From contig JAHIHG010000050.1 of the NCBI GenBank assembly GCA_018898425.1, forward strand, positions 1 through 34,763: a stretch of DNA of 34,763 nt, written 5' to 3'. The position numbers and the translations under genes were made by a program. The notes beneath the pieces are model-generated. The model was not told the origin of the DNA and did no database searches. It saw only the letters and a list, made by a program, of their open reading frames with translations. Positions 5,597 through 29,039 of the stretch are shown one piece after another (within the stretch, counting starts at the first letter, position 1; each line of letters starts with the position of its first letter). Origin of the DNA: Nanobdellota archaeon. GTDB lineage: Archaea; Nanobdellota; Nanobdellia; Pacearchaeales; GW2011-AR1.

Positions 5597-5706
5597 GGGC
5601 CTGTTGTCCAATGGTTTAAGATACTTCCCTTGCACACGACGCGAACTTGTTTGCGAAGTCATCGTCAAGATCGGAAGAGATCCGTGTTCGATTCACGGCA
5701 GGTCCA
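5597..5706 (+). tRNA. tRNA-Ala(UGC) with a 37-nt intron (5635-5671) at the canonical 37/38 position
   Basis: Acceptor gggcctg/caggtcc includes G3:U70. Anticodon stem cttcc/ggaag, loop c-t-TGC-a, T arm ccgtg-ttcgatt-cacgg, discriminator A. The intron folds into helix / 3-nt bulge / 4-bp helix / 3-nt bulge / helix. It sits in the 16S-23S spacer, as is typical for archaea. Confidence 0.9.
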
Positions 5707-5955: not shown

Positions 5956-6003
5956 AATAAGCAGTAGAAGAAATCCCACTTAAAAATAAATTCAGAATAA
6001 ATA
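5956..6003 (+). other. 5' strand of the pre-23S processing helix
   Basis: aataagcagtagaagaaat (5956-5974) is the exact reverse complement of 9601-9619. tcagaataaata (5992-6003) is the exact reverse complement of 9581-9592. Confidence 0.75.
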
Positions 6004-8638: not shown

Positions 8639-9580
8639 CTTAAGGTAGCGTAATACCTTGTCATTTGAATGATGACTTGCATGAATGGTTTAACGAGGTT
8701 GTCACTGTCCCTAATTGGAGCCTTCTGAAAATATTTTTCCGGTGCAAAGACCGGAGACACCTAGTGGGAAGCGAAGACCTTGTGGAACTTTACTGCAACT
8801 TGTTGTTGTAATTTTATGAAAAACGCATAGCATAGGTAGGAGCGTCGAAGCTGTCATTTCGGTGACAGTGGAGCGAACTTGTAATACTACCCATTTTTTA
8901 TAAGATTGCTTACTCTTTAGAGGACAGCAGCAGGCGGGCAGTTTGACTGGGGCGGTGCCCTGTCGAAAAGATATCGATAGGACCCAAAGACAAGCTCATC
9001 CAGCTTGGAAATCTGGAGTTGAGTGCGAAGGCAAAAGCTTGTCTGACTGTATTTTGAAAAGCAAGAAATGCAGGGGAGAAATCCGGGCTTAGTGAACCCA
9101 CATGCTCATTTAATAGGAGCTGTGTCTGATAGAAAAGTTACCCCAAGGATAATAAGCTTGTCGCCCCCGATAGTCCGAATTGACGGGGCGGTTTGGTATT
9201 TCGCTGTCGGCTCTTCCTATCCTGCGCGTGCAGAAGCGTGCAAGGGTGCCGGAGTTCACGTATTAAAAGGAATCGTTAGCTGGGTTAAGAACGTCGCGAG
9301 ACAGTTTGTATGATATCTACTAGGTGTGTTATTGTCTGAGTGGAACAAGTTAGTAGTACGAGAGGAACCTGACTTGGATGCCTCTGGTGAGCAGTTGTTA
9401 TATAGCAGGCTGCATAGCTACGCATTGTATGGATAAGAGCTGAATGCATCTAAGCTCGAAGCCATTCGCAAAACGAGACAATTAAGGCCGTCAAAGAAGA
9501 TGACGTTGATAGAGTTCTTGTGTAAGCACGAAGGTTCGCCGACGTGTTCAGCATAGAACAACTAAAAGCCTCACTTGTAT

Positions 9581-9619
9581 TATTTATTCTGATAAAGAGA
9601 ATTTCTTCTACTGCTTATT
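9581..9619 (+). other. 3' strand of the pre-23S processing helix
   Basis: tatttattctga (9581-9592) and atttcttctactgcttatt (9601-9619) are perfect complements of 5992-6003 and 5956-5974. Confidence 0.75.
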
Positions 9620-9687
9620 AATTGTATTATTTTTAAATAAATTTTTCATAATCAAAATCTTTTTATATAAAGAATTCTTGTTAAAAT

Positions 9688-9933
9688 ATGTGTAAAATAG
9701 AGGTGAAGGTTGTACCAATGTATAGTGCTCCTTTAATAAGTTTTAATAAATTGCTCAATGCTTTTAGTCAATATGCTGACTTGCCTCTTAATTCAATTGA
9801 AATTATAAGTGTAAGAAATAGCCATCAAACATATTATTTAAAATTTGATGAATTAAAAGTTAAAATTCCTCTTGAAAAAATCTTAGATTATTTTAACAAA
9901 TTAGAAAATTATCATGCAGAAGAAAAGTTTTAA
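9688..9933 (+). CDS. hypothetical protein
   Basis: 81-aa ORF downstream of a ttttatataaag TATA-like element (9661-9672). An alternative start is the ATG at 9718, preceded by gaggtga (SD-like). No recognisable motif. Confidence 0.45.
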   Translation: MCKIEVKVVPMYSAPLISFNKLLNAFSQYADLPLNSIEIISVRNSHQTYYLKFDELKVKIPLEKILDYFNKLENYHAEEKF

Positions 9934-9957
9934 AAATAAATTAATCAGATATATCTT

Positions 9958-10167
9958 ATGGCAAAAACAAAAAAGAGGACTAAAACAAAAACAACCACAG
10001 ACAAAAAAGTGTGTTACCCTTGCAAGACAAGTGATTGGATTTTTCCAATTGCAATTATTGCATTAGTTTGGCTAGCGCCTGCAGTGATGTGGTCTAAAAT
10101 TGTAATAACAGTTTTAGCTGTATTGGCTTGGGGAAGTAATTTCTGTCCTTGCAGAAAAAAGAAATAA
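9958..10167 (+). CDS. small membrane protein (basic N-terminus, two hydrophobic segments, Cys pairs)
   Basis: 69 aa: a KTKKRTKTKT N-terminus, CYPC, two TM-like stretches, and C-terminal CPCRKKK. Confidence 0.5.
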   Translation: MAKTKKRTKTKTTTDKKVCYPCKTSDWIFPIAIIALVWLAPAVMWSKIVITVLAVLAWGSNFCPCRKKK

Positions 10168-10253
10168 GAAATTTAAAAAATCTATTGAATTGACTGGTTA
10201 CTTAGAAGTTAATAAGGAATGATTTTTTACATCATTAATTCTCTAAAATTTAT

Positions 10254-10526
10254 TTACAACCCAAAATTATCAACAAAATCTTCAATAATTTTATATTCTT
10301 GCAAAAAATCCTGTCCCTTTTTTGTTAATGAAAATGTTTTTTTTTCTTTATTATCAATGTCGATATTAATAAATTTTTTACTTATTAATTCATTTATATA
10401 TTCCTTAAACATTTGGGGAGATAGATTAGAAGCATATAACAACCTTGTTGGCTTAATACTTCTGGTTTCTCTAATAGCTCTTAAAATATCTTTAATAACT
10501 TCCAGTCGTTCACGTTTTTTAGGCAT
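10254..10526 (-). CDS. winged-helix DNA-binding protein (archaeal HTH_45-like small regulator)
   Basis: 90 aa. RERLEVIKDILRAIRETRSIKPTRLLYASNLSPQMFKEYINELISKKFI fits the small archaeal wHTH regulator pattern. Preferred over the overlapping plus-strand ORF 10219-10545. Confidence 0.75.
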   Translation of the reverse strand: MPKKRERLEVIKDILRAIRETRSIKPTRLLYASNLSPQMFKEYINELISKKFINIDIDNKEKKTFSLTKKGQDFLQEYKIIEDFVDNFGL

Positions 10527-10537
10527 TTTATATTATT

Positions 10538-11212
10538 TTATTTAGTTATTCTAACAACCCCTGCTGCAAAAAATAAAAAAATAATTATGTTTAGCAAATA
10601 AATTGTAATTAAAATTCCAGGATTCCATGCAAAAGTCAGGGCTGCTAAAAAATTAAGCACCCATGCAATAAAACTAAAAATCATTGCTATTAAATAAAAT
10701 TTAAGAAACTTTCCTTTACTTCCTTTTGCGATATAATTATTATAACTTATTAAAATTAAAATTGCAAAAAGAATTATTTGCGAAAAAAACATAAAATAAA
10801 ATGTTTTCCAGATACAATCTAATCCAACAATAACAAAAGCCATTAAATAAAAAACAAGAACTTTTGAATTAATTAAAGAGGTAAAATATTCTTCTCCTGC
10901 TGATTCTATTTTTTTCCATAATAAACTATAAAGCAAAAAAAAACCACCCATTATTAAAAAATATTCAAAAATAAAAGTTGTTAAAACATGATAATTTTTG
11001 TTAAAAATAAAATATTTTAAATCAAAAAAATACCTTATAAAAAATCCAATCCCGTAAAAAAAGAATGCATTCCTAAAGTATCTTATGCCTTGGTGTTCAC
11101 TTAATTTAAATAATTTGTTTGTCTTAATTACAATTACAAAGCAACTTAAAATAATTATAAAAGCATAAATTAATTTAAGTGATTCCTTGCTCTGAATAAT
11201 CCATTCAATCAT
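10538..11212 (-). CDS. polytopic membrane protein, unknown function
   Basis: 224 aa with about 6-7 hydrophobic helices, rich in F/I/L/Y. Confidence 0.7.
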   Translation of the reverse strand: MIEWIIQSKESLKLIYAFIIILSCFVIVIKTNKLFKLSEHQGIRYFRNAFFFYGIGFFIRYFFDLKYFIFNKNYHVLTTFIFEYFLIMGGFFLLYSLLWKKIESAGEEYFTSLINSKVLVFYLMAFVIVGLDCIWKTFYFMFFSQIILFAILILISYNNYIAKGSKGKFLKFYLIAMIFSFIAWVLNFLAALTFAWNPGILITIYLLNIIIFLFFAAGVVRITK

Positions 11213-16873: not shown

Positions 16874-16924
16874 TTTAAATCAAACTATCAACATCTTTAA
16901 ATAATTAAAATACTTATTTTTTTA

Positions 16925-19381
16925 ATGAAAACAGAGTTTATTCCAATAGATTATGATTATTTTGATTTTAATGGAAGAAATTATGCCAAAATAATTGGAA
17001 GAAATGCAAAAGGCAAAAGAGTTTGCATAATTGATTCTTGTCCAGTATATTTATGGGCTATTTTAAAAGATAAATTAAAACAAAGTGAAATTGATAAACT
17101 TGTTTTAAAAATTGAAAAAATAAAACTTGATGTTAAAGGAAGGAAAACAAAAGTTGAAAAAGTGGAAGTTCATGAAAAAAACTTTTTAGGTAAAAAAGTA
17201 AAAGCTTTGAAAGTTTTTGCAACAAATTACAAAGATTTGCATGACATTGCAGATAAATTGGGAACAAAAGAGATTGTCAAAAGAAGAGGCTATGATTTGG
17301 GGTATGTAACACATTATATTATTGAAAAAAAAATAATTCCTTTAAATTGGTATGAAATTTCGGGAGAATTATTAAATAATTCAGAAAAATTTGGGGGTAT
17401 TGACAAGAGTTTAGATGTTGATTATTGCATTAAATTAAAAAGTTTAAAGAGTATTAAAGAAAAAAAATTTATGCCAAAAACTCTTGCCTATGATATTGAA
17501 ACAGATGAATTAAAAATTGGCGAAGGAGAAATTCTTATGATTTCCCTTGTTTCAGAAGAATATAAAAAAGTCATAACCTGGAAAAAATATTCTGGAAAAA
17601 AGCAGGATTATGTTGAATATGTGGAGAATGAAAAAGAATTAATTAAAAGATTTATTGAGTGTGTTAAAGAGGTATCTCCTGATTTTTTAGTTGGATATTT
17701 CTCAGATGGTTTTGACTTACCTTATTTAAAAGCAAGAGCTGATAAGCACAGAGTAAAACTCAGCTTAGGTCTTGATGGAAGTGTGCCAAGATTTAGCAGG
17801 GGCATAAACTTAACTGGAAGAATAAATGGGGTGGTGCATTTAGATATAATAAAATTCATAAAAACAGCATATGCCCAATATATGCAATCTGAAACACTTT
17901 CTTTAAATGATGTTTCAAAAGAATTTTTAGGCGAGGGGAAAAAAGATTTTACAATTAAACACTCTTCAAAAATAAACAAAGAAGAATGGGATAAATATTA
18001 TGAATATAATTTGCATGATTCTGTTTTAGCTTATGGTTTATTTGAAAAATTCTGGCCAGACATGCTGGAATTCTCAAGAGTAATGCAAGAACCAGTTTTT
18101 GATGTCTCAAGATATGGCTTATCAAAACAAGTAGAATCATATATATTGCATAATCTGGAAAAATTTAATGAAATTCCTGAAAAAAGGCCAGGCTATGATG
18201 AGATTTCACAAAGAAAGCACAGGGAAAAAGTTGAAGGAGCATTTGTTTTAGAACCCACTCCAGGACTTTACAAAAATATAGCAATATTTGACTTTACCTC
18301 AATGCATACTAGTATTATAATTTCTATGAACATTTCAAAATCAACTCTTCTTGAAAAACCTGAAAAAAATTCATTCAATATAGAAACAAAAACAGGAAAG
18401 TTTTATTTTTCAAAAAAACCAGGATTTATTCCATTGTTATTAAAAGAAATTCTTGAAAAAAGAAAAAGATATAAACAAGAATACAAAAAAAACCCGGACA
18501 ATATCACAAAAGCCAGAAGCAATGCATTCAAAGTATTATCTGCATCTGTCCATGGATATATTGGTTTTTTTGGAGCAAGATATTTTTCACTGGAATCTTC
18601 TTCTGCTATACTTGCCTTTGTCAGAAAATATAATAAAGAAACAATCAAGAAAATAGAAGAAGCAGGATATAAAGTTATTTTTGCAGATACTGATAGTACT
18701 GGGTTTTTAATGAACAAAAAATCAAAAACAGAAATAAAAAAGTTTCTTAAAGAAATTAATTCAAAACTTCCAGGGGTAATGGAGCTTGGATTAGAAGGTT
18801 TTTTTGAAAAAGGGCTGTGGGTTTCTACTCGTGGAGGAACAATTGGAGCAAAGAAAAAATATGCTCTAATTGATGAAAAAGGAAAAGTAAAAATAAGAGG
18901 GTTTGAAACAGTGAGAAGAGACTGGTGTGGAATATCCAGAAAAATGCAGGATAAAGTAATAAAATTAATTTTAAAAAATGGTAATGAAAAAAAAGCTCTT
19001 GAATATGTTAAAGAAGTGATTAAAGATATAAAAAACAGAAAAATAAGCAAAGAAGATTTAATAATAAGATCTCAGCTTAAAAAACCTATTTCAGAGTATA
19101 AGCTTATTTCTCCGCATGTTATTGCAGCCAAAAAAATGAAAGAACAGAATATCCCACTTAGTCAGGGAAATTTAATTGCATATTATATTGCTGAATCAAA
19201 AGACAAGAAAAAATTAGTCAGGGACAAGGTAAAACTTCCTGAAGAAAAAGGAGAATATGATATTCAGTATTATCTTGAAAGACAGATTCTTCCTGCTGTT
19301 GAAAATATTTTTCAGGTGTTTAAAATAAATATTAAAGAAGTAATTGATGGAAAAAAGCAGATGACTTTGGGGGATTTTTAA
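16925..19381 (+). CDS. polB: family B DNA polymerase
   Basis: 818 aa. Exo I is LAYDIETDE, Exo II GFDLPYL, Exo III YYEYNLHDS. Motif A is DFTSMHTSII, motif B KVLSASVHGYIG, motif C FADTDS, followed by KKKYALID. Confidence 0.95.
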   Translation: MKTEFIPIDYDYFDFNGRNYAKIIGRNAKGKRVCIIDSCPVYLWAILKDKLKQSEIDKLVLKIEKIKLDVKGRKTKVEKVEVHEKNFLGKKVKALKVFATNYKDLHDIADKLGTKEIVKRRGYDLGYVTHYIIEKKIIPLNWYEISGELLNNSEKFGGIDKSLDVDYCIKLKSLKSIKEKKFMPKTLAYDIETDELKIGEGEILMISLVSEEYKKVITWKKYSGKKQDYVEYVENEKELIKRFIECVKEVSPDFLVGYFSDGFDLPYLKARADKHRVKLSLGLDGSVPRFSRGINLTGRINGVVHLDIIKFIKTAYAQYMQSETLSLNDVSKEFLGEGKKDFTIKHSSKINKEEWDKYYEYNLHDSVLAYGLFEKFWPDMLEFSRVMQEPVFDVSRYGLSKQVESYILHNLEKFNEIPEKRPGYDEISQRKHREKVEGAFVLEPTPGLYKNIAIFDFTSMHTSIIISMNISKSTLLEKPEKNSFNIETKTGKFYFSKKPGFIPLLLKEILEKRKRYKQEYKKNPDNITKARSNAFKVLSASVHGYIGFFGARYFSLESSSAILAFVRKYNKETIKKIEEAGYKVIFADTDSTGFLMNKKSKTEIKKFLKEINSKLPGVMELGLEGFFEKGLWVSTRGGTIGAKKKYALIDEKGKVKIRGFETVRRDWCGISRKMQDKVIKLILKNGNEKKALEYVKEVIKDIKNRKISKEDLIIRSQLKKPISEYKLISPHVIAAKKMKEQNIPLSQGNLIAYYIAESKDKKKLVRDKVKLPEEKGEYDIQYYLERQILPAVENIFQVFKINIKEVIDGKKQMTLGDF

Positions 19382-19422
19382 GAAAATTTTATAAAAGGGA
19401 GGTACTATAAATTATAAAGAAA

Positions 19423-20148
19423 ATGCTTCATCTTGCAAAAATTCCCAAACAAGAAAAAGACCCCTTAACATTAGCACGGGCAAATTTAATTTTTGAAGAA
19501 TATTGTCAAAAAGGTATATATTCAAAAAGAGATAAGAATAAAACCAAAAATATAATTGAAGAATATTTAAATGATATAGATTCAGTATCATATCTTTTAT
19601 TTGATTTAAAAAATGATGGAGTTCTTGAAGGACAAACAACTGTAACATACACAATTAAAGAATTTCAAAAATTACCTTCTTTTAAAAAAGGATTCTGGCG
19701 TGACAAAGATATAAAAATTATAATGGAAAAAAAAGGTTTTGGATTAGAGGAAAAAATAGCAGAACTTAACAAATTTGCAACAAAAACAAAAAGAGGAAAA
19801 AATCCTTCTGTAAATCTTATAAGGCTTTATGGAAAAATATTTCCAAAAATTAAAAAACAAACAGACCATGTTTTAATTTCTTCTTGCAGAAAAAATTTAG
19901 AAAATTATATGAGAATGGGGCTGGGGGAAGCATTCTTAGAAACAGAGCACTACTCAGAAAAATTAAATGGAAAAGATGTTGTAGTGGGATATATTGGGCT
20001 TTCAAATTTAAATATAGAAAAAAGTGTACATAAATTATTAAAAAGAATGGGGGAAAAAGAAACTACTCAAGAATATTTAGAAAATTTGAAGAAAACATGC
20101 ATGGGTTATGCTATTGGTATGGGACATCCCCTTTGGAATTGCATTTAA
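19423..20148 (+). CDS. hypothetical protein
   Basis: 241-aa ORF 41 nt downstream of polB. No recognisable motif. Confidence 0.6.
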   Translation: MLHLAKIPKQEKDPLTLARANLIFEEYCQKGIYSKRDKNKTKNIIEEYLNDIDSVSYLLFDLKNDGVLEGQTTVTYTIKEFQKLPSFKKGFWRDKDIKIIMEKKGFGLEEKIAELNKFATKTKRGKNPSVNLIRLYGKIFPKIKKQTDHVLISSCRKNLENYMRMGLGEAFLETEHYSEKLNGKDVVVGYIGLSNLNIEKSVHKLLKRMGEKETTQEYLENLKKTCMGYAIGMGHPLWNCI

Positions 20149-20184
20149 AAAATCTATTGTAAAATATTTTTTGAAAAATAAACT

Positions 20185-20529
20185 TTAAATATTTATTTTA
20201 TTTGCATAATGTCCAATCAGAGGAGTTTCTTTTTGCTTTCCAGATACTGAATTTATTAATGCAACCACCCAGATTACAAAATACATCACCCACAAAACCG
20301 GAACAGCTATTACCCCAATTATAGTAAGAATAAGAAGAACAGAAAGTATTTTTACAACAATTCCAGACAAGAAAAGAATTAAACTTTGTTTTGCATAATA
20401 CATAACATATTTATCATCTTTTTTGGCAATTAATGCAATTATAAAACCTGCAACACTTAAAAGAATTGCTAAAAAAGCAAATAATTTTGAATCTGATTTT
20501 TGCTTCACTCTTTTTTGTTTTTTTGCCAT
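20185..20529 (-). CDS. small membrane protein (DUF4870-like)
   Basis: 114 aa with three hydrophobic helices. KKDDKYVMYYAKQSLILF resembles the DUF4870 pattern. Confidence 0.6.
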   Translation of the reverse strand: MAKKQKRVKQKSDSKLFAFLAILLSVAGFIIALIAKKDDKYVMYYAKQSLILFLSGIVVKILSVLLILTIIGVIAVPVLWVMYFVIWVVALINSVSGKQKETPLIGHYANKINI

Positions 20530-20670
20530 TATAGGTTAAGTAAAATAATATATTTAAATGTTCTTATTAATCAGTATTGTTACAGAATTTAATAAATTAA
20601 ATTTATTCAAATTTTCATTATAACATTGTCTTCAGAAAAATATTATAAACCCTTTTTAATTTATTATTTA

Positions 20671-22113
20671 ATGGAATTAGATTATGAAAAACTGGGATTA
20701 AAAAGTGGATTAGAAATTCATCAGCAACTTGACACAAATAAATTATTCTGCAATTGCCCCTCTGTTTTAAGAACAGATGAACCTGATTTTAAAATCACAA
20801 GAAAACTTCATGCTGTGGCAGGTGAATCTGGAAAAATTGATAAGGCTGCAGCTTATCAGGCTTCTTTAGATAAAGAATTTATTTATCAGGGTTATGATAC
20901 TACCTGCTTGATTGAATTAGATGAAGAGCCCCCGCATGAAATAAATAAAGATGCTTTGAAAATTGCATTACAAATTTCTATTTTATTAAATGCTAAAATA
21001 ATTCCATTAACACAAATTATGAGAAAAACAGTTATTGATGGTTCTAACACCAGCGGTTTTCAGAGAACAGTCATGATTGCAAAAGAGGGTTATGTGAATA
21101 CAACACATGGAAAAGTGAGAATTGCTGGAATTTTTTTAGAAGAAGATTCAGCAAGACCAATTATGCGGGAAAAAAATCTTGCTGTTTATAGATTAGACAG
21201 ATTAGGAATTCCATTAGTTGAAATTGCGACATATCCAGATATAAAAAGTGCAGAACATGCAAAAGAAACTGCCTTGAAAATTGGAGGAATTTTAAGAAGT
21301 TGCAGGGTCAAAAGAGGTATTGGGACAATAAGACAAGATATTAATATTTCGCTTAAAGACAGACAAAGAGTTGAACTTAAGGGATTTCAAGACCCAAAAA
21401 TCATGATAAAAACTTTTGAAAATGAAATCAAAAGGCAAAAAAAATTAATTGATTCTGGAAATACAATGGAAGCAGAAGTGAGAAATTGTCTTGCTAATGG
21501 AGAATCAGAATTTTTAAGACCAATGCCTGGAGCTGCAAGAATGTATCCTGAAACAGATTTGCCTTTATTAAAAATATCAAGAAACTTGATTAATGAGGTT
21601 AAAAAAAATCTGCCAACATTAAGAAGTGAAACTGAAAAAGAACTCAAAGAAAAAGGATTAAGCCAGGAAATGATTAAATTATTACTTAAACAAAACAAAT
21701 TAGAAGAATTTAGAGAATTAACTGAGGTTACTGATAACCTTCAACTAGCAGGAAAAATTCTTCTTATTATTCCAAAAGAAATAGCAACTCGTGAAAAAAT
21801 TTCAATAATTAAAATTAATAAAATTTTAAATAAAGATGTTTTGGCATTTGTTTTAGAATCGTTGAAAAAGAAAAAGATTTCTGAATCACAAGTTAAGCAA
21901 GTTTTAGAAAAAATTGTAAAAGGCGAGGATTTGGATAAAGCTATTAAATTTGAAAAACAAGATTCTGGAATTATTGAAGAAAGAATTATGAAAATAATTA
22001 AAGAAAAACCAGGATTATCTATGAATGCTTATATGGGGCTTATTATGAAAGAGTTTAAGGGAAAAATTGACGGAAAACAGGCAATGGAAATTATTCAAAA
22101 ATTTGCAAAGTAA
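20671..22113 (+). CDS. gatE: GatE-type tRNA-dependent amidotransferase subunit lacking the GatE insertion domain
   Basis: GLEIHQQLDTNKLFCNCPS, MRKTVIDGSNTSGFQRT, RLDRLGIPLVEI, VKRGIGTIRQDINIS and ARMYPETDLP are GatE-type rather than GatB-type blocks (GatB has RKNYFYPD..KNYQISQ). There is a YqeY-like tail. About 480 aa from the ATG at 20671; the track's TTG start at 20626 is unlikely. Confidence 0.85.
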   Translation: MELDYEKLGLKSGLEIHQQLDTNKLFCNCPSVLRTDEPDFKITRKLHAVAGESGKIDKAAAYQASLDKEFIYQGYDTTCLIELDEEPPHEINKDALKIALQISILLNAKIIPLTQIMRKTVIDGSNTSGFQRTVMIAKEGYVNTTHGKVRIAGIFLEEDSARPIMREKNLAVYRLDRLGIPLVEIATYPDIKSAEHAKETALKIGGILRSCRVKRGIGTIRQDINISLKDRQRVELKGFQDPKIMIKTFENEIKRQKKLIDSGNTMEAEVRNCLANGESEFLRPMPGAARMYPETDLPLLKISRNLINEVKKNLPTLRSETEKELKEKGLSQEMIKLLLKQNKLEEFRELTEVTDNLQLAGKILLIIPKEIATREKISIIKINKILNKDVLAFVLESLKKKKISESQVKQVLEKIVKGEDLDKAIKFEKQDSGIIEERIMKIIKEKPGLSMNAYMGLIMKEFKGKIDGKQAMEIIQKFAK

Positions 22114-22164
22114 ATATAAATTTTATAAAAGAAGATTTAAATATTAAGAAAATAAACCAATAAC

Positions 22165-23493
22165 ATGAAACAAATTGATTTAAACAAAAACAGGATTTTA
22201 ATAAAAGATGTTTTTAATAGTAAAAAGCTAAAAGTTGAAATTGCCGGATGGGTTCATAAAATTCGGGGGTTAGGAAAAATTAATTTTATTGTTTTAAGAG
22301 ATATATCTGGGATTATTCAAATTACTGCTGTTAAGGGTAAAGTTTCTGATGAATTATTTAACTTAATGGATAAGATTACAAGAGAATCAGTAATTTATGT
22401 TAAAGGAACTATCAAAGATTCAAAGCAAGCACCTAGGGGAAAAGAGATTATCCCTGATGAAATTGAAATTATCAGCAAGGCAGAAGATTTGCCTATTGAT
22501 GTTTCTGATTTTTCAAAAACAGAATTGCCTAAGAGATTGGATTGGAGATGTTTAAGTCTTAGAACAAGGAAATCACAAATTATTTTCAAAATACAATCTA
22601 AATTAATTGAGGGCATGCAAGAATGGCTTCATAAAAATGGATTTTCTCAAGTTTTTACACCTTGTTTAATGGGGGTTGCTTCTGAATCTGGAAGTGAGGT
22701 GTTTGAAGTCAAATATTTCAAAGACAAAGCATTTTTAAGACAAGACCCTCAATTACATCGGCAGCTTACTATTTTAGGGGGTTTGGAAAGAATTTATGAT
22801 ATTGGTGCAAGTTGGAGAGCTGAAAAAAGCCATACTGTAAGGCATTTATGTGAACACAGAACTTGTGCAGTTGAACTAGCTTTTATTGATTCTGAAAAAG
22901 ATGTTATGAAAATAGAAGAGCAGGTGATTATTTCTGCGTTTAAAAAAGTAAATCAAGATTGTAAAAAAGAACTTGAAGAATTAGAAATTAAATTAAATAT
23001 TCCTCAAACTAATTTTCCAGAAATAACTTTCCCAGAAGTTTATAGTATTTTAGAAAAAATGGGGATAAAAATTAAAGAGGGTGAAGATTTAGATTTAGAG
23101 GCAGAAAAATTATTATGGAAATATGTTCAAAAACAATATCCAGGTGTTGATTTTTATTTTCTTAATAAATTTCCTTTTAAGAAAAAACCATTTTATGTCA
23201 TGGGGGAAGACAATTCAAGATACGCAAGAAGCACAGATTTATACTATAGAGGAATTGAAATGTCATCAGGAGGGCAGAGAGAAAATAGATATGATTCTTT
23301 AATGAAAAATATAAAAGATAGGAAAGTAAATCCAAAATCTGTGGAATGGTTTACTAAGTTTTTTAAATATGGTGTTCCAACGCATGGGGGGTTTGCAATT
23401 GGCATAGAAAGATTAACAATGGTCTTGTTAGAATTGCCAAATGTTAGGGAAGCTGTTTTATTCCCCAGAGATACTGAAAGATTACTTCCTTAA
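22165..23493 (+). CDS. aspS: aspartyl-tRNA synthetase, archaeal type (class IIb)
   Basis: 442 aa. OB-fold N-terminus (IAGWVHKIRGLGKINFIVLRD), FLRQDPQLHRQL, motif 2 WRAEKSHTVRHLCE, motif 3 GGFAIGIERLTMVLLELPNVREAVLFPRDTERLLP. Confidence 0.9.
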   Translation: MKQIDLNKNRILIKDVFNSKKLKVEIAGWVHKIRGLGKINFIVLRDISGIIQITAVKGKVSDELFNLMDKITRESVIYVKGTIKDSKQAPRGKEIIPDEIEIISKAEDLPIDVSDFSKTELPKRLDWRCLSLRTRKSQIIFKIQSKLIEGMQEWLHKNGFSQVFTPCLMGVASESGSEVFEVKYFKDKAFLRQDPQLHRQLTILGGLERIYDIGASWRAEKSHTVRHLCEHRTCAVELAFIDSEKDVMKIEEQVIISAFKKVNQDCKKELEELEIKLNIPQTNFPEITFPEVYSILEKMGIKIKEGEDLDLEAEKLLWKYVQKQYPGVDFYFLNKFPFKKKPFYVMGEDNSRYARSTDLYYRGIEMSSGGQRENRYDSLMKNIKDRKVNPKSVEWFTKFFKYGVPTHGGFAIGIERLTMVLLELPNVREAVLFPRDTERLLP

Positions 23494-23523
23494 AATTCCC
23501 TATTCTTAAGTACATAGACTTTG

Positions 23524-23543
23524 TTACCTTAATTGGTCTTTTT
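23524..23543. repeat. left copy of a perfect 20-bp inverted repeat (ttaccttaattggtcttttt)
   Basis: Exact reverse complement of 26721-26740. Lies between the aspS stop (23493) and the first methyltransferase gene. Confidence 0.9.
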
Positions 23544-23588
23544 TGTTTGAATGAAAGATTTTTTATAACTTCTTTCCTTGATTATTTT

Positions 23589-24242
23589 ATGATAAAAGAG
23601 TGGACAAATAAGATTATTTGTGGAGATGCTTTAGAATTAATTAAAGAAATTTCTAATGAAAGTGTAGATTTAATTTTAACTGACCCCCCTTATGGAATTA
23701 AAAAAGAAGGAATAAAAAATAGTGCAGATTTAGAAACCTTTTATTTAATTCTTCTAGAGTGTTATAGGGTTTTAAAAAAAGACGGATTTTTTATAACCTT
23801 TTTTAGCACAAAACTTCTTCCAGAAATTTTTAAAAATAATCCTTTTAATTATCATTGGCAATTTATATTAAACTGTCCTCTTGGGAGTGTTCGTTCCCCC
23901 ATAGGTTTCAGTAAATATATGTCTTGCTTCGTTTTTAAAAAAGGAAATCCAAAGATTATAAAATGGAATAAAGATATATTTAATGATTCTCCTTCTAAAA
24001 TGGTTGAACCAGATGAGGGGTTTATTAATCATCCATCTCCAAAACCAAAAAACTTTATTTCTGAATTATTAAAAATGTTTTCTAAAGAGAGAGATATAAT
24101 TTTAGACCCTTTTATTGGCTCAGGTAGTACTGCTCTTGCTTGTTTGCTCTGCAATAGAAATTTTATAGGATTTGAGATAGAAAAAGAATATTGTGATTTA
24201 GCAATAAACCGTTTAGAAAGATTAAGATACAGAAAAACTTAA
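23589..24242 (+). CDS. beta-class (N6-adenine/N4-cytosine) DNA methyltransferase
   Basis: Motif IV (LTDPPYG) precedes HPSPKPKNFISELL and motif I (LDPFIGSGSTALA), the circular permutation typical of N6_N4_Mtase enzymes. The start is taken at ATG 23589 (MIKEWTNKIICGDALE) rather than the track's TTG at 23547. Confidence 0.9.
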   Translation: MIKEWTNKIICGDALELIKEISNESVDLILTDPPYGIKKEGIKNSADLETFYLILLECYRVLKKDGFFITFFSTKLLPEIFKNNPFNYHWQFILNCPLGSVRSPIGFSKYMSCFVFKKGNPKIIKWNKDIFNDSPSKMVEPDEGFINHPSPKPKNFISELLKMFSKERDIILDPFIGSGSTALACLLCNRNFIGFEIEKEYCDLAINRLERLRYRKT

Positions 24243-24266
24243 AAATAATCGGTACCTTAACAATTA

Positions 24267-24425
24267 ATGAAAGTTATTAAAGTTTTATCAAAAAAAGTAG
24301 GAGATATGATCTACTTTAAATTTATTATTAATATCCCTAAAGAAATTATTAAAAAATCTGGGTTAATAGGAAAAAATCTTAAAGTAAAAGCAGAAAAAGA
24401 TAAAATTATTATTGAGAAAGAATAA
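24267..24425 (+). CDS. AbrB/SpoVT-type small DNA-binding protein (candidate controller or antitoxin-like regulator); below the ORF-track size cutoff
   Basis: 52 aa: MKVIKVLSKKVGDMIYFKFIINIPKEIIKKSGLIGKNLKVKAEKDKIIIEKE. The segment v.IPKEI.kk.GL..G..L.V....dkIII.K is the looped-hinge-helix (SpoVT-AbrB) signature. Confidence 0.7.
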   Translation: MKVIKVLSKKVGDMIYFKFIINIPKEIIKKSGLIGKNLKVKAEKDKIIIEKE

Positions 24426-24448
24426 AAATAATATACCTTTTTGTTTCT

Positions 24449-24479
24449 GGTACCGAAACATTTATATACGAGCGGTACC
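24449..24479. promoter_or_regulatory. two GGTACC hexamers bracketing a BRE/TATA element (gaaacatttata, 24455-24466) upstream of the second methyltransferase
   Basis: GGTACC occurs at 24449-24454 and 24474-24479, with centres 25 bp apart and TATA between them. The ATG at 24490 is about 25 nt from TATA, which suggests a leaderless transcript. A third GGTACC lies at 24251-24256. Confidence 0.45.
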
Positions 24480-24489
24480 ATAATAGATT

Positions 24490-25647
24490 ATGGTTAACCT
24501 TTATAATGCCGAAGACACTCAAAACAGCATGGAAGAAATAAAGAAATTTGTCTTAGGGCAATATTTTACAAAAGAGGAAATAGTTAAGAGAGTGATAAAT
24601 TTATTGCAAAGTTATAAATATTATAGTAAAGATGTTTCAATTTTAGAACCCTCCGCAGGAACCAGAAATTTTGTTAAAGAATTAGTAAAAAGTGGTTTTA
24701 ACAAAATAAACGAGTGTGAGATTGATAAAGATTTAACCAATAACCCTCAAGATTTTTTTAACTTTGAAGAAAAAAGTAAGTTTGATTTAGTTATAGGGAA
24801 CCCCCCATTTACCAAATACAATGTTAAGAATAGTTATTTTTACCCATCAAAATATCAAAATATTTCTTTTTTAGAAAATGGTTTAAATAAAAAAGAAAAA
24901 ATACAAATAGAAAAAGCATTTATTTTAAAATCTATCAAACATCTCAAAAATAAAGAATCAAGTATCGCTTTCGTTTTACCAATTTCTTTTTTTATTGGGA
25001 ATAAAAACAATGAAACAAAAAAAATACTCTTAGATAATTTCTCAACAATAATCATCTACCAAAACGATAAAAGCTGGTTTGAAGAACCTATCCCTTGTTG
25101 TTTTGCGATATTTACTAATATTGAAGAATATAAAGACAAGATTATTTTGCTTTATGAAGATGGGGAAAAAATTAAAGAAGTTATAGATATAGGAAAATTA
25201 TTAACAGAAGAGCTTATACCAAAATCATTTTTATATAAAAAAAAGAACGGAAACGGTAAAGGAAAACATACTCTTTCAAAATATCTCTCAGAAAAGATAG
25301 CAAAATATCAAAGAGATTATAAAAATAATAATATTTCTGGAGCAAATATATTAACAAAGACCAAAATACCTAAAGAAAAAAATATTAAAGAGTATTCTTT
25401 GGCAGTTGTTAGGGTTGGAAATTCAAGTATAGGAAAAACAGGTTTAATTAATATCAAAGAAAATATTTTAAATGATATGTTTTATGTATTTGATTTTAAG
25501 GAAGAACATAATTTAAATAAGGAATTAAAAGAAAAGATAGTTTCAGAAATAAATAAAAATCAAGAGCATTTTAGGAATTTATCTGTTCGTGTTGGAAGTA
25601 AGTCTATGAAGAAAAATGATTTATTAAATTTTAAGATTAACTTGTAA
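24490..25647 (+). CDS. gamma-class N6-adenine DNA methyltransferase (M.TaqI/Eco57I-like)
   Basis: 385 aa with GQYFTKEEIVKRVINLL, motif I ILEPSAGTRNF, and motif IV LVIGNPPFTKY. The C-terminal half is plausibly a target-recognition domain. Confidence 0.85.
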   Translation: MVNLYNAEDTQNSMEEIKKFVLGQYFTKEEIVKRVINLLQSYKYYSKDVSILEPSAGTRNFVKELVKSGFNKINECEIDKDLTNNPQDFFNFEEKSKFDLVIGNPPFTKYNVKNSYFYPSKYQNISFLENGLNKKEKIQIEKAFILKSIKHLKNKESSIAFVLPISFFIGNKNNETKKILLDNFSTIIIYQNDKSWFEEPIPCCFAIFTNIEEYKDKIILLYEDGEKIKEVIDIGKLLTEELIPKSFLYKKKNGNGKGKHTLSKYLSEKIAKYQRDYKNNNISGANILTKTKIPKEKNIKEYSLAVVRVGNSSIGKTGLINIKENILNDMFYVFDFKEEHNLNKELKEKIVSEINKNQEHFRNLSVRVGSKSMKKNDLLNFKINL

Positions 25648-26503
25648 TTCCCTTAAGTATTGTTTTCATATCCCACTCGTGGTCTTTTGAAGTTATCATA
25701 AATGTTTTAGCAATATTAAATAAATCTTCTTTTGATAAATTTATTATAATTTTTTCGTTCGATTTTGCCTTTCTTCCAATAAGTGGTTTATTTTCTTTAT
25801 CTTTTAAGGATTTTATCCAAATACAAAAATAGACCATTCCCTGGTAACCTACTGCTCTTTGTTTATGTTTTATTTGTATTTCTGTAAAAAATTTATCATT
25901 CATTCTTTTAATAAATAAGGGAGCATACTCTTCATAATACTCAAAATCCTCTGAAATCTTTTTATTTAAGGATTTTCTTTTAACAGAATATTGAATCTCA
26001 ACATCTATTTTTTCTTCATTAAATTTTAGTAATTCTTCAATTTCTTTTTTGGAGATAACCTTTTCCTGTATAGCTCTTTCAAATAAATCGGCAAGTTCAT
26101 ACATAACATAAGTTTTATTGGCCTTATGTTCTTTTATAATTAAAATTTGATTATGTCTCTCAAAAATCTCTTTTAATTTACTTTTAAAATCTCTTCTTTG
26201 AATTTCTTCTGTTTCTTCAAAGAAATTAATAAGTTCTTGAATTAATTCGTTTGGTTTAAATTCTCTAAAATAATCTTCAATCAATAATTTTTTCTTTTGT
26301 TTGTTCTTCTTAACACTTTTGAATTTATCCCAAAGGGTATCAAAAGGCATAAAATAAGAAATCTGCCATTCAATATAATCCTCCTTAGAAAGTTTATCTT
26401 CTATTTTTAGTGGTTCTCCAAATTCGTTCTTTCTTCTCTTTACTCTTGCTCTCCCTGTTGAAGTTGTAAGAGGTAGTTCATATTTTAAAGTATTTTCTAC
26501 CAT
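25637..26503 (-). CDS. uncharacterised protein, candidate restriction endonuclease/effector of the cassette
   Basis: 288-aa ORF convergent with the methyltransferase, with an 11-nt tail overlap. I could not place a nuclease motif with confidence. Confidence 0.7.
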   Translation of the reverse strand: MVENTLKYELPLTTSTGRARVKRRKNEFGEPLKIEDKLSKEDYIEWQISYFMPFDTLWDKFKSVKKNKQKKKLLIEDYFREFKPNELIQELINFFEETEEIQRRDFKSKLKEIFERHNQILIIKEHKANKTYVMYELADLFERAIQEKVISKKEIEELLKFNEEKIDVEIQYSVKRKSLNKKISEDFEYYEEYAPLFIKRMNDKFFTEIQIKHKQRAVGYQGMVYFCIWIKSLKDKENKPLIGRKAKSNEKIIINLSKEDLFNIAKTFMITSKDHEWDMKTILKGITS

Positions 26504-26504
26504 A

Positions 26505-26684
26505 TTATTTTATCAAACCAATTTCTTTTAGTTTTTGAAGTCTTTCTTGATGTTCTTCTTCTGTTAAAGATTTAGCATTTTTTAGTTCATTAATCTTACT
26601 TTTTCTTAATTCTTCATTTTGTTTAGAAATCCTACCTTGTTTATGTCTTGCCTTATTGAGTTTTGATATACTGGGGGTTGCCAT
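26505..26684 (-). CDS. small basic helical protein, translationally coupled to the 288-aa ORF; below the ORF-track cutoff
   Basis: 59 aa: MATPSISKLNKARHKQGRISKQNEELRKSKINELKNAKSLTEEEHQERLQKLKEIGLIK. Its stop (26507-26505) is 1 nt from the downstream ATG (26503). Confidence 0.55.
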   Translation of the reverse strand: MATPSISKLNKARHKQGRISKQNEELRKSKINELKNAKSLTEEEHQERLQKLKEIGLIK

Positions 26685-26720
26685 AAAAAATTAAATTAAA
26701 AGAAACTTAAAAACCTATCT

Positions 26721-26740
26721 AAAAAGACCAATTAAGGTAA
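26721..26740. repeat. right copy of the perfect 20-bp inverted repeat (aaaaagaccaattaaggtaa)
   Basis: Exact reverse complement of 23524-23543. Lies 36 nt upstream, in the minus sense, of the 59-aa ORF start. Confidence 0.9.
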
Positions 26741-26812
26741 TAACGAAAATACGGAGAAATGTTTAAAAACGAGGTAATTTAGTACATCTATTTTAAATTG
26801 GAGGAAATAAAC

Positions 26813-26878
26813 ATGAGTGACGATGAATGGGAAGATGATGATGACACAGATGATGACTCTGATGACGACGAAGACTGA
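26813..26878 (+). CDS. hyperacidic 21-aa micro-ORF (MSDDEWEDDDDTDDDSDDDED)
   Basis: The ATG is preceded by ggagg (26800-26804) with an 8-nt spacer, complementary to the 16S 3' end cctcc. 17 of 21 residues are D/E. A T-rich tract follows the ORF. Confidence 0.3.
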   Translation: MSDDEWEDDDDTDDDSDDDED

Positions 26879-27000
26879 GTTGTCTTAAATTTTTTCTTTT
26901 AATTTTTATTTTTTTATTGAAAGTTTCTTAAAAAGGTTGAATAAAGGGTTATAAAATATTATGCCCTGAGTGTATAAAAAACCGAAATATTTAAATAGAA

Positions 27001-27020
27001 GTACTCATACTATGTACTCA
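27001..27020 (+). promoter_or_regulatory. direct repeat gtactca (x2) immediately upstream of vapB, candidate operator
   Basis: gtactca occurs at 27001-27007 and 27014-27020. The ATG is at 27022. Confidence 0.35.
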
Positions 27021-27021
27021 G

Positions 27022-27264
27022 ATGGTAAGTGTAAATATTTCAATTAAAAAGGAAGCATATAATTTTTTAAAATCATTAAAAGCAAAAGATGCAAGTTTCT
27101 CAGATGTTATTTTGGAATTCAAGGAGAGAGAAATAGGGAAAAAAGGAAGTAAAGAAAGCGTAATGAAATTTTTTGGTGTATTGAAAAATAAAAATATAGA
27201 CTGGAAAGCCAAAGAAAAAAGAATGGGAGAATTCAGGGAAGAATTTGAAAAAAGATTAAAATGA
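27022..27264 (+). CDS. vapB: VapB-family antitoxin (archaeal putative-antitoxin/DUF217 type)
   Basis: 80 aa. VSVNISIKKEAYNFLKSLKAKDASFSDVILEF matches the I.I.eevY..L...K...eSFSDVI pattern. Overlaps vapC by ATGA. Confidence 0.75.
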   Translation: MVSVNISIKKEAYNFLKSLKAKDASFSDVILEFKEREIGKKGSKESVMKFFGVLKNKNIDWKAKEKRMGEFREEFEKRLK

Positions 27265-27653
27265 TCGGACTAGACACAACTGCAATAATAGACATTTTTA
27301 AAAATGATTTAAAAATTATCAAGTTAATTAATAGTCTTGATAAAACTTTTGCAAGCACAATCATTAATCATCAGGAGATTATGTTTGGATTAGATAATGA
27401 GAATCTTCAACATCTTGAAGAAGAAAAATATTATGATGATTTTTTTAATAACATTTTTGTTTTTTCATTGGAAAAACCATCCTCAAAAAAAGCATCTAAA
27501 ATTTTTTGGGAATTGAAAAAGCAAGGAGAATCTTCTGGAAGATTTGACTGCATGATTGCAGGAATTTTATTATCAAATGGCATTAACACAATTATTACTA
27601 GAAATGTCAAGCATTTTAAAAAAATTAAAAATCTCAAAGTTATTTCTTATTGA
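27261..27653 (+). CDS. vapC: PIN-domain ribonuclease toxin VapC
   Basis: 130 aa with an MIGLDTTAIIDIF N-terminus (first PIN Asp), later acidic residues and a C-terminal ITRNVKHF. 4-nt overlap with vapB. Confidence 0.8.
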   Translation: MIGLDTTAIIDIFKNDLKIIKLINSLDKTFASTIINHQEIMFGLDNENLQHLEEEKYYDDFFNNIFVFSLEKPSSKKASKIFWELKKQGESSGRFDCMIAGILLSNGINTIITRNVKHFKKIKNLKVISY

Positions 27654-27711
27654 AAGTTTTAAAAATAATGTTTTGTTTGGAATTGAAACAGTGATTTTTG
27701 GGAATTTCCCA

Positions 27712-28503
27712 TTATTTTATTAATTTTCCCAATTCTTTTAAAAATAATTTAGCAGTTTCTCTTAATTCTTTTATGCCTTGTTTTTTATAAATTCTAATTA
27801 TTTTGAAATACTCTTTTTGTAATTGCAGAGGTAATTTTCTAGATAATTTTTTTAATTTCTCTCTGTTTTTTCCAACAATAAATCCTTTGTAACAAAAGTA
27901 ATTCATTAATGCGACTTCTATACTAAATACAATTGATTCTTTTTTGTATTGATTAGTCAATTTAATTTTCTGATCAAGCTTTAATTCAAGTTTATTATTT
28001 TTTATTTTATATTGATTATACCAACCAAATCTGCCTTTAATATCTCCTTCAAATTTTTGCAAATCTTTTAACAAGGCTTTTTTTGAGATTTTCTTTAAAC
28101 TTCTTATTTTGTTTAATTGTTTTCCTTTGATAAATTTATAATTATGAAGTGCATTAAACCAAATAGGTTCTCCAATTTTTTTTAACAAATTTAAATCATA
28201 AACCAAAAGATGAAATTGAAGTACTTTTTTGTCTTTTACTTTTTTTGGTTTAATAGGGCCCATGCGTGTTTCAACAATGGCTTTTATTTTTCTTGTTGTT
28301 ATCTCTTTTGCAATTTGCTTGAATTCCTTGAGTAAATTTTTATAAATTTTAGAGTTTAATTTATCAAAAATTATCAAAATATCTATGTCATTTACATTTT
28401 TTATTCTTTTTTTTGGAAATGAACCAAGAATACTAATTGATATTATTGAAGGAGTTTTTATATTAGAAATTTTTTGGTATATTTTTTGTTTGAATTTATT
28501 CAT
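27712..28503 (-). CDS. Pol-beta-superfamily nucleotidyltransferase with a C-terminal helical domain
   Basis: 263 aa. ISILGSFPKKRIKNVNDIDILIIF carries the GS-x(n)-DxD signature. The size and architecture are like KNTase/MNT-type enzymes. Confidence 0.75.
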   Translation of the reverse strand: MNKFKQKIYQKISNIKTPSIISISILGSFPKKRIKNVNDIDILIIFDKLNSKIYKNLLKEFKQIAKEITTRKIKAIVETRMGPIKPKKVKDKKVLQFHLLVYDLNLLKKIGEPIWFNALHNYKFIKGKQLNKIRSLKKISKKALLKDLQKFEGDIKGRFGWYNQYKIKNNKLELKLDQKIKLTNQYKKESIVFSIEVALMNYFCYKGFIVGKNREKLKKLSRKLPLQLQKEYFKIIRIYKKQGIKELRETAKLFLKELGKLIK

Positions 28504-28563
28504 AAGATTCTATTAATTTCAATATTTAAATAATTTTATAAATTGATTCTTGTTTAATAAACT

Positions 28564-29039
28564 ATGAAAATATTGGTTATTGGAGACCCGCATGGAAAAT
28601 TAGGAAAAATCAAAAAACTCAATCTTAAAAATATAGATTTAAAATTAATTACAGGAGATTTGGGAAAAGCGGATTTAGCTAGAAAAAGATTTTTTGAAAA
28701 TTTGGAAAGAAGGGCAAAAAAAGATTGGTAAATGCAAAAAAAGATTCTGCAAAAGCTAAAAAAATTTTAAATCATTTTGGGAAAAATTTAGATATTTTAT
28801 TATGTCATGGTCCCCCAAAAGGATATTTAGATAAAGTAAGCGGGAAGTATGGGGCTCCAAAACGATTTTGGGGTAAGCATGCTGGAAGTAAAATAATTTT
28901 AGATTATATTCTAAAAAAACAACCAAGATATGTTTTTTGTGGACATATTCATGAAGGCAAGGGAAAAACAAAAATTGGAAAGACAGAAGTTTATAATGTT
29001 GGGGTTTCAGGAGATTATGTTTTGCTGGATATTAATTAA
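28564..29039 (+). pseudogene. calcineurin-like metallophosphoesterase, frame-disrupted
   Basis: The N-terminal piece MKILVIGDPHGK...LITGDLGK (28564-28731) stops at TAA 28729. The C-terminal piece (track ORF 28725-29039) carries LLCHGPP and CGHIHEG. The frames differ. gcaaaaaaagatt occurs twice, 20 nt apart (28714-28726 and 28734-28746), and removing 20 nt restores one ORF. Confidence 0.65.

Follow-up and report, generated by a model that had tools for sequence, protein, structure and literature searches.

The stretch examined here, hereafter the window, comprises positions 1 to 34,763 of contig JAHIHG010000050.1 of a Nanobdellota archaeon (Pacearchaeales, assembly GCA_018898425.1), which has ~27% G+C and includes a 16S-23S rRNA operon. 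Just downstream of aspS, which ends at 23493, the 20-mer TTACCTTAATTGGTCTTTTT occurs at 23524-23543 (+), and its exact reverse complement occurs at 26721-26740. This inverted pair had been pointed out in a sequence-only reading of the same stretch, and our search reproduced both of its positions as well as those of the five open reading frames (ORFs) that lie between the repeats and adjoin aspS. The reading had also held that such a recurrence would not be expected by chance, and this was borne out: the window contained no further copy of the 20-mer at up to 3 mismatches, the chance expectation was 0.03, and two or more matches occurred in 0 of 100 shuffles. As argued below, the two 20-mers are very probably the cores of ~27-bp terminal inverted repeats (TIRs) belonging to a family of DDE transposons of DPANN archaea, of which the window holds a transposase-deleted copy. 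Taken between the outer limits of its TIRs, this element spans 23517-26747 (3,231 bp). We refer to the left, variable TIR as the B-end and to the right TIR, which has a built-in putative promoter, as the A-end.

The genes between the repeats are, as judged from their profile matches, those of a complete PabI-family Type II restriction-modification (R-M) system. Their earlier description as a two-methyltransferase cassette was accurate in that both methyltransferases, one of the beta and one of the gamma class, are present, but it missed that the unit is a full R-M system that includes a PabI-family endonuclease. This 288-aa protein matched PDB entries 7CFA, 2DVY and 3WAZ at E ~1e-21, with residues 6-286 covered. 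The 59-aa and 288-aa ORFs, which had been described as a convergent pair, turned out to be co-directional and to converge jointly on the gamma-methyltransferase gene, which overlaps the 3′ end of the 288-aa gene. Compared with related elements at two metagenome loci, L032 and L023 (loci are cited by L numbers throughout), the R-M genes appear intact and under purifying selection, with a ratio of nonsynonymous to synonymous substitution rates (dN/dS) of ~0.1 at dS 0.5-0.85. For the beta-methyltransferase, whose gene is missing from the related L011 element, dN/dS was 0.11-0.14, and the putative promoter block of this gene is conserved in L015, L016, L023, L032, L047 and L063. Homologues of the 52-aa protein were present in L011, L023, L032, L052, L063 and L065, with more distant ones in L009, L031 and L045; a PDB profile search with this protein gave no significant match, and its "AbrB-like" identity stays a suggestion. 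No significant Pfam or NCBIfam match was found for the 59-aa ORF.

To place the repeat in a wider setting, we compared it with metagenome sequences. The exact 20-mer was found in 31 metagenome stretches, ~25 of which share T(T/A)C(T/A)TTG followed by the 20-mer, and its context often continues with AGATAGG-TTTTTAAG and then an ATG; among viral contigs, the exact 20-mer had no match. Six stretches (L008, L013, L020, L024, L027 and L033) were set aside as probable chance matches on account of a GC-rich or non-canonical context, as were L056 and probably L050. A search with the 15-nt core TTACCTTAATTGGTC brought out inward-facing pairs (124 bp-5.8 kb) in L006, L009, L011, L014, L018, L023, L030, L031 and L032, and with L045, L052, L063 and the window added, 13 complete pairs of 0.14-5.9 kb were available. 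The consensus of 24 TIR ends reads TtCtTTG-TTACCTTAATTGGTC-TTTT (~27 bp). Among the 24 non-window ends of complete pairs the 15-nt core was identical in 20, the remaining four each differing by one mismatch, and conservation extended to the outer 7 nt. The 20-bp repeat reported earlier is real, then, but the functional repeat is longer, the family TIR consisting of 7 nt, the 15-nt core and TT(TT). Both TIRs of the window deviate from the consensus in their outer 7 nt (GACTTTG and TTCGTTA). A fuzzy search of the window with the full TIR found no copy beyond the two ends; the 11-nt match at 12946 that the sequence-only reading had listed does exist, but it has no extension into a TIR. The TIR was present in 19 metagenome-assembled genomes of DPANN archaea, from Pacearchaeota, Woesearchaeota and Nanoarchaeota.

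Perfect 9-bp direct repeats, each of a different sequence, lay exactly 7 nt outside the core in 6 of the 10 pairs formed by the nine loci above and the window. Over the whole collection, perfect 9-bp target-site duplications (TSDs) flanked nine independent elements: L006, L009, L011, L018, L023, L032, L052, L063, and L012 together with L016, which are one contig split in two. As a control, 9-mers were compared across loci, and here the best match was 6/9 and the mean 2.2. Two of the pairs resemble miniature inverted-repeat transposable elements: L014 has a 138-bp TIR pair (2296-2433) with no ORF and no TSD, and the 470-bp pair of L018 (2441-2910) encloses a truncated restriction-side ORF and is flanked by a perfect 9-bp TSD.

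An empty version of the insertion site was found as well. The sequence-only reading had proposed to look for an empty aspS/vapB junction, and one is present in L057 (ENA) and L058 (JGI), independent assemblies of a ~97%-identical strain in which AspRS is 96% identical to that of the window and aspS is directly followed by a 21-aa acidic ORF and vapBC. L057 aligns with the window at 97.1% identity over 16893-23518 and at 96.2% over 26747-27663, whereas window positions 23519-26746 are missing from it; the same interval is missing from L058. Eleven nucleotides of the empty site (AAGTACATAGA) align on both sides of the window element, perfectly on the left and at 8/11 on the right. It had been stated that the repeats have no flanking direct duplication; there is indeed no perfect one, but a degraded copy becomes visible against the empty site (8/11, or 6/9 for the 9-mers). 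Because the signature is degraded in this copy, the case for transposition at this locus is carried by the empty-site comparison and by homology with intact elements.

We then considered which enzyme might act on these ends. Every element of at least 2 kb encodes a transposase of 294-322 aa (~305 aa), the window element being without it: tblastn found the transposase neither in the cassette nor elsewhere in the 34.8 kb, in agreement with the earlier description of a cassette that has no transposase. The transposases scored above cut-off with Pfam DDE_Tnp_IS240 (in 3 of 5 proteins tested) and Transposase_mut. With the NCBIfam IS6 model NF033587 they aligned over positions 1-201/202 (E 4e-22), at 67-79 bits against a cut-off of 125; scores with the IS1 (43-53 vs. 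100), IS1595 (26 vs. 75) and IS256 (38-49 vs. 150) models also stayed below cut-off, and the IS1/IS1595 zinc domain NF050000 was matched at 31-33 bits (cut-off 28) in 2 of 4 proteins. The layout comprises an N-terminal four-cysteine zinc ribbon, a helix-turn-helix (HTH)-like helical region and a DDE/RNase-H-like core, and C9, C12, C36, C39, D121, D187, E231 and R238, among others, were invariant in 29 diverse transposases. An AlphaFold2 model (predicted local distance difference test score, pLDDT, 85; predicted template modelling score, pTM, 0.83) had the ISCth4 transposase as its best PDB match (E 8e-9); TnsB, retroviral integrase, MuA and IstA came next. On the strength of the alignment and the model, we take the protein to be a DDE enzyme with intact catalytic residues that falls below the curated threshold of every named insertion sequence (IS) family, and it would presumably be the protein that binds the TIRs. 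At 90% identity, the transposase family falls into 1,443 clusters, almost all from DPANN archaea and with generic source labels; one member is labelled "IS1/IS6 family transposase" in its NCBI source. The transposase relative in L065 stands beside a tyrosine integrase and a protein-primed-type family B DNA polymerase (PF03175) (6876-7985, 9610-10906), and may sit inside another mobile element.

The window element is colinear and ~84% identical with the elements of L032 and L023 on either side of a gap, which corresponds to a deletion of the ~920-bp transposase ORF downstream of its retained promoter and start codon, so that the gamma-methyltransferase is read from the old transposase ATG. The relic at 24438-24494 shares 80-84% identity with the sequence that precedes tnp in L032, L023 and L011. 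The history suggested by these comparisons would be one in which a PabI-subgroup element inserted between aspS and the promoter of the acidic-ORF/vapBC unit behind it and later lost the ~920-bp transposase ORF together with an adjacent variable segment, after which the kept transposase promoter and start codon would have come to drive the gamma-methyltransferase gene. Judged from this colinearity, the window copy is a non-autonomous derivative of the transposon family. With mutations in its tips and in one target copy, it is probably immobile too; the off-consensus tips in particular would argue against current mobility.

Comparison of the intact elements revealed a common layout, consisting in order of a B-end TIR with optional genes, the AbrB-like gene, the transposase, a methyltransferase, a convergent endonuclease and the A-end TIR with its putative promoter. 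The methyltransferase ATG lies 1-6 nt past the transposase stop, and the spacer TAA-AAG-ATG precedes unrelated gamma-N6 and C5 methyltransferases alike. On the opposite side, a block resembling a B recognition element (BRE) and TATA box begins ~6 nt after the 20-mer, and behind it the endonuclease-side ATG lies 40-42 nt from the TIR core at nearly all of the 22 A-type ends listed; this putative A-end promoter block stands in front of at least 9 unrelated genes. The same slot was occupied by at least seven different Type II R-M modules: (1) a PabI-like endonuclease and gamma methyltransferase, with or without a beta methyltransferase; (2) an MvaI/BcnI endonuclease and N4/N6 methyltransferase; (3) a Dam-like D12 methyltransferase and 181-aa protein; (4) a C5 methyltransferase and 250-aa protein; (5) a C5 methyltransferase and HNH protein; (6) an N6_N4 methyltransferase and 225-aa protein; and (7) an N6_N4 methyltransferase with 398-aa and 217-aa proteins. 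The 2.06-kb element of L052 has only an AbrB/SpoVT-like ORF, the transposase and a 227-aa methyltransferase-like ORF. Methyltransferase/endonuclease pairs would appear to have been swapped into one fixed slot of a transposon backbone.

The flanks of the elements pointed to a further regularity. Of the 52 distinct ends, 21 have in their flank a strict TATA 8-mer (TTTATAAA-like) that stops exactly 14 nt short of the TIR tip, a distance made up of the 9-bp target and 5 nt more; no other tip-to-TATA distance was seen in more than one case. The TATA background at random positions in the same loci was 0.12-0.18% per distance (binomial p ~4e-44). With a relaxed TATA definition, 27 of 51 ends qualified, as did all 13 complete pairs, window included, on one flank or both; the second flank passed in L018 and L045, with a weaker AT-rich 8-mer. 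Of the ends facing the TATA box, 10 are A-ends and 11 are B-ends, and in promoter orientation the consensus is N8-G-WAA-NN-TTTATAAA-CC. In L010, L012, L018, L022, L029 and L067, outward-reading host ORFs begin 20-23 nt past the box, as they would behind a leaderless archaeal promoter; in L014, L045 and the window there is instead a short leader that carries a GGAGG-type motif. The pairs in L014, L030, L031 and L045 retain the canonical TATA-N5 spacing on one flank. In the window, the host TATA box is already present in the empty site. That the outer TATA might be the element's own, or might drive transcription into the element, was considered and rejected, given that the TSD lies between TATA and TIR, that the TATA is in the empty site and that the host ORFs read away.

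So exact a spacing could not be produced by selection alone, and we conclude that it reflects target choice at insertion. Transposition, on this view, targets the 9 bp separated by 5 nt from a downstream host TATA box, where the BRE has its outer edge, and duplicates them; since the duplication restores its upstream sequence, the host promoter stays intact. Targeting through a tether to TBP/TFB and targeting through direct read-out of the BRE/TATA sequence are both conceivable. More tentatively, one might picture a promoter-guided R-M shuttle, in which the transposase or its AbrB-like partner recognizes a BRE-TATA landmark, the cargo slot is precise to the ORF and occupancy of the TIR times restriction; we regard this fuller picture as possible, though rather less likely than its contrary. 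A literature search, of incomplete coverage, returned no description of this transposon family or of TATA-referenced targeting in archaeal transposons.

Several observations weigh against the transposon interpretation. The window copy has no perfect TSD (6/9) and both of its TIR tips are off-consensus. Its right junction carries five substitutions together with a 1-nt register shift in ~16 nt (26741-26756), directly beside a perfect 20-nt core, and the flanks near this changed junction differ by only 3-4% from L057. The pairs in L014, L030, L031 and L045 also have no perfect TSD and yet keep the TATA spacing on one flank, a pattern that would be expected from adjacent deletions or from inter-copy recombination after replicative transposition. 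The loci were retrieved by the exact 20-mer, which inflates the conservation of query-matched ends; partner ends and L063 are free of this bias, and L063, retrieved via the transposase alone, had the same TIRs and a perfect TSD. Finally, when four transposase relatives were sampled without reference to the TIR, the R-M layout was present in L063 and L067 but not in L064 and L065, which had no recognizable R-M cargo and no clear TIR match. The association of the transposase family with R-M genes is frequent, not universal.

Two explanations of the repeats had been offered from the sequence, a mobile cassette and a shared operator, with a slight lean towards regulation. In the operator explanation, the repeats bind a regulator (for example the 52-aa or 59-aa protein) in C-box-like control of the two inward-facing operons and have no role in mobility. 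Both repeats do adjoin inward-facing TATA-like boxes in the window, directly upstream of them, as had been observed; the core-to-ATG spacing is fixed at +40 to +42 at A-type ends, and a small AbrB-like protein is a conserved companion gene. However, the core is equally conserved at ends without an inward gene (L009, L030, L031 and L045) and is kept in the ORF-less 138-bp pair of L014 and the near-empty 470-bp pair of L018, neither small protein matched an HTH or C-protein family, and the accompanying transposase would be left unaccounted for. The nine perfect 9-bp TSDs at a fixed offset from the core, and the absence of the whole repeat-bounded unit from a ~97%-identical strain, refute the operator as the sole explanation, and we consider a purely regulatory origin of the repeats very improbable. 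The sequence-only reading had reasoned that a 20-mer lying upstream of many unrelated genes would speak against mobility; that is where it lies, but the genes are alternative cargo of the same transposon. It is the mobile-cassette explanation that proved correct, with TIRs shared with transposase-bearing, TSD-flanked relatives, an empty site and the relic of a transposase promoter.

A less exclusive possibility is that these are transposon ends whose occupancy by the transposase or the AbrB-like protein also tunes the restriction promoter, for example by delaying restriction after entry into a new host. The BRE/TATA-like block is conserved in its placement before at least 9 unrelated restriction-side genes, and in the window both cores are identical at 20 of 20 positions despite dS of 0.5-0.85 relative to L032 and L023, decayed tips and TSD and a lost transposase, which hints at a constraint other than mobility. 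Then again, a perfect core could reflect recent loss of the transposase, B-ends have no promoter block and the window encodes no transposase to occupy the site, and we think such a double function rather unlikely. Recombination by a recombinase encoded elsewhere, with the repeats as the sites of an invertible segment, would fit inverted repeats around an R-M module as well as the finding that in L067 and L069 the same element end is joined to two flanks via reverse-complementary 9-mers. Yet the elements are accompanied by a DDE transposase and not by any tyrosine or serine recombinase, and the variable 9-bp direct duplications and the empty site are signatures of transposition, which makes inversion highly improbable. 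(The joined 9-mers, at L067 3740-3900 and L069 3560-3715, are GGTTTACAA and TTGTAAACC, as expected for both orientations at one site; L068, a candidate for an element with inverted flanks, was rejected as a palindromic assembly artefact whose first and last 141 nt are reverse complements of each other.) Chance recurrence, or two unrelated solo repeats, might be entertained in an AT-rich genome, and long imperfect inverted matches are indeed frequent in the window, but besides the low expectation given above, elements at other loci match the whole repeat-to-repeat interval colinearly at ~84% identity, and the interval is missing as one unit from L057/L058, so that the probability of coincidence is negligible. 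We retain the transposon-end interpretation.

R-M units bounded by inverted repeats (IRs) have been described before in Xanthomonas oryzae (65 bp) and Neisseria gonorrhoeae (26 bp), both with 8-bp TSDs, and the possibility was raised that such a unit is non-autonomous and mobilized in trans by a transposase (Furuta, Abe and Kobayashi, 2010; PMC2853133). The elements described here resemble those units in having Type II R-M genes within TIRs, a short direct duplication and an empty site in a related genome. They differ in that those cases were bacterial and isolated, belonged to no wider family and had no active transposase identified, whereas a cognate DDE transposase is identified here; further differences are the 9-bp TSD, the many elements with one TIR, the exchangeable cargo, the DPANN hosts and the TATA-positioned insertion. 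Tn7-like transposons likewise carry defence cargo (Benler et al., 2021; PMC8649781). The likeness lies in the transposon as a vehicle for R-M or defence systems, but the present family has a single small DDE protein in place of TnsABC plus a targeting protein, much smaller elements and one fixed cargo slot.

Mobile insertion cassettes (MICs), as defined in ISfinder, are transposase-less and cargo-carrying, MIC231 of Bacillus cereus being an example, and IS6 family members have direct repeats of 8 bp (ISfinder). Transporter IS (tIS) are mentioned in a review of the IS6 family, in which IRs of 15-20 bp with GG tips are described and only one member with a passenger gene is listed (PMC7986276). 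The window element is MIC-like in that IS-type TIRs surround passenger genes without a transposase, and its intact relatives are tIS-like in that transposase and passenger genes lie within one TIR pair; unlike in either, the cargo is consistently R-M, in a fixed slot that would be co-transcribed with the transposase, and the window copy is probably immobile with mutated tips. Similarity to the IS6 family, which includes IS26, IS257 and IS240, is seen in the best profile match over the full model, the DDE-plus-R signature and a TGTT motif near the TIR tip, and similarity to IS1/IS1595, in two of the four proteins tested, in the type of the N-terminal zinc-binding domain. The family departs from IS6 in its score below the family cut-off, T(T/A)C TIR tips, 9-bp TSD and 2-6-kb elements with cargo, and the nearest solved transposase structure is of the IS256 family (ISCth4).

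R.PabI of Pyrococcus abyssi (PDB 2DVY/3WAZ) is a GTAC-specific DNA glycosylase. The window endonuclease is a full-length homologue, paired with adenine-type methyltransferases, and might be expected to share the GTAC specificity; it differs in a ~40-aa insertion, and the system as a whole differs in having two methyltransferases of different classes. Promoter-adjacent integration is known from yeast Ty3, through TFIIIB (TBP plus Brf1), and from the Dictyostelium TRE elements, with Tn7 TnsD at attTn7 as a further case of targeted insertion. With Ty3-type targeting the present family shares a fixed distance from a transcription landmark, an intact neighbour gene and, as for Ty3, both element orientations; unlike Ty3, TRE and Tn7, it is an archaeal DDE DNA transposon.

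How R-M systems move between genomes is a long-standing question, and where the TIR-flanked units of 2010 had no identified transposase, a vehicle is identified here. DPANN mobile elements and defence systems are poorly known, and this family is widespread there. The 14-nt TATA spacing points to promoter-referenced target choice that spares the host promoter, and if the promoter-guided shuttle were true, it would be the archaeal DNA-transposon counterpart of Ty3 targeting through TFIIIB. For annotation, the seemingly "orphan" R-M island beside aspS is accounted for: the window probably holds a PabI-type member, transposase-deleted, likely immobilized and predicted to be functional, of a previously uncharacterized family, and the TIR core together with TATA-N5-N9 offers a search signature for others. 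The features of the window element and its borders are collected in Table 1.

Table 1. Features of the R-M element downstream of aspS and of its borders, in window coordinates.
Feature	Position	Strand	Evidence and remarks
Left target copy, AAGTACATA	23508..23516		Identical to the single copy in the empty site (L057/L058 alignment)
Left TIR (B-end)	23517..23543	+	GACTTTG + core TTACCTTAATTGGTC + TTTTT; tip base off-consensus
TATA-like box TTTTTTATAA, putative inward promoter of beta-methyltransferase gene (ATG 23589)	23559..23568	+	Sequence inspection
Beta-class N6/N4 DNA methyltransferase, 217 aa, optional cargo	23589..24242	+	Pfam PF01555, E 1e-32
52-aa AbrB/SpoVT-like protein, recurrent family backbone gene	24267..24425	+	NCBIfam TIGR01439 below threshold, E 0.002
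Transposase-promoter relic and start codon (ATGGT)	24438..24494	+	GGTACC 24449-24454, TATA 24460-24468, GGTACC 24474-24479
Gamma-class (Eco57I-like) N6-adenine DNA methyltransferase, 385 aa	24490..25647	+	Pfam PF07669, PF02384; dN/dS 0.10-0.12
PabI-family restriction endonuclease / DNA glycosylase homologue, 288 aa	25637..26503	-	Pfam PF09522, E 6e-15; dN/dS 0.11
59-aa basic ORF between end promoter and restriction gene, optional	26505..26684	-	Missing in L011, L023
A-end putative promoter block AGATAGG-TTTTTAAG	26685..26720	-	TATA-like 26706-26713; ATG 41 nt from TIR core
Right TIR (A-end)	26721..26747	-	Outer 7 nt TTCGTTA, 2 mismatches to consensus TTCTTTG
Degraded right target copy AATACGGAG, or AAATACGGA in the other register	26748..26756		6/9 match; 1-nt register ambiguity
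Host promoter, BRE-like AAATG + TATA TTTAAAAA (26762-26769)	26757..26769	+	Reads away toward 21-aa acidic ORF and vapBC; TATA ends 14 nt from TIR tip

Some smaller observations concern the recognition sequences of the R-M modules. GTAC was not depleted in the window (33 observed, 28 expected) and GGTACC was also near expectation, so that avoidance of R-M sites was discarded as an explanation for the GTAC of the target or for the GGTACC pairs. The TSDs of other PabI-type elements do not contain GTAC; in the right target copy of the window, a G-to-A change removes the duplicated GTAC. GGTACC flanks the TATA of the relic transposase promoter, and a third site (24251-24256) precedes the 52-aa gene. 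The arrangement at the transposase promoter was seen only in PabI-type elements (the window, L011, L023 and L032), and as these sites contain GTAC, they could be an operator or methylation-sensitive. GATC was strongly under-represented in the window (25 observed vs. 74 expected under a Markov model), with other 4-mer palindromes near expectation; Dam-type modules occur in the transposon family, and the scarcity may reflect past or present GATC-specific restriction.

Beyond the right border, the 21-aa ORF (26813-26878, +; MSDDEWEDDDDTDDDSDDDED) is highly acidic, has a GGAGG motif upstream, lies between the host TATA and vapB, and is conserved in L057/L058. The region 3′ of aspS is a variable hotspot (window 27664-29037; L057, L059-L062). 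Also missing from L057 are a gene for a 263-aa nucleotidyltransferase-like protein and the fragments, of 55 aa and 104 aa, of a split metallophosphoesterase. In strains whose AspRS is 93% and 80% identical, an intact 266-aa metallophosphoesterase comes immediately after aspS, and the toxin-antitoxin content differs.

Elsewhere in the window, the 23S rRNA match (5999-9585) is ~600 nt longer than the Rfam model and has within it an ORF (8028-8531, +) for a 167-aa LAGLIDADG homing endonuclease (PF00961, E 7.5e-21); the extra segment is probably an rRNA intron. The 16S-23S spacer contains a 110-nt tRNA (5597-5706, +) by Rfam that was not called by ARAGORN and that probably contains an intron.

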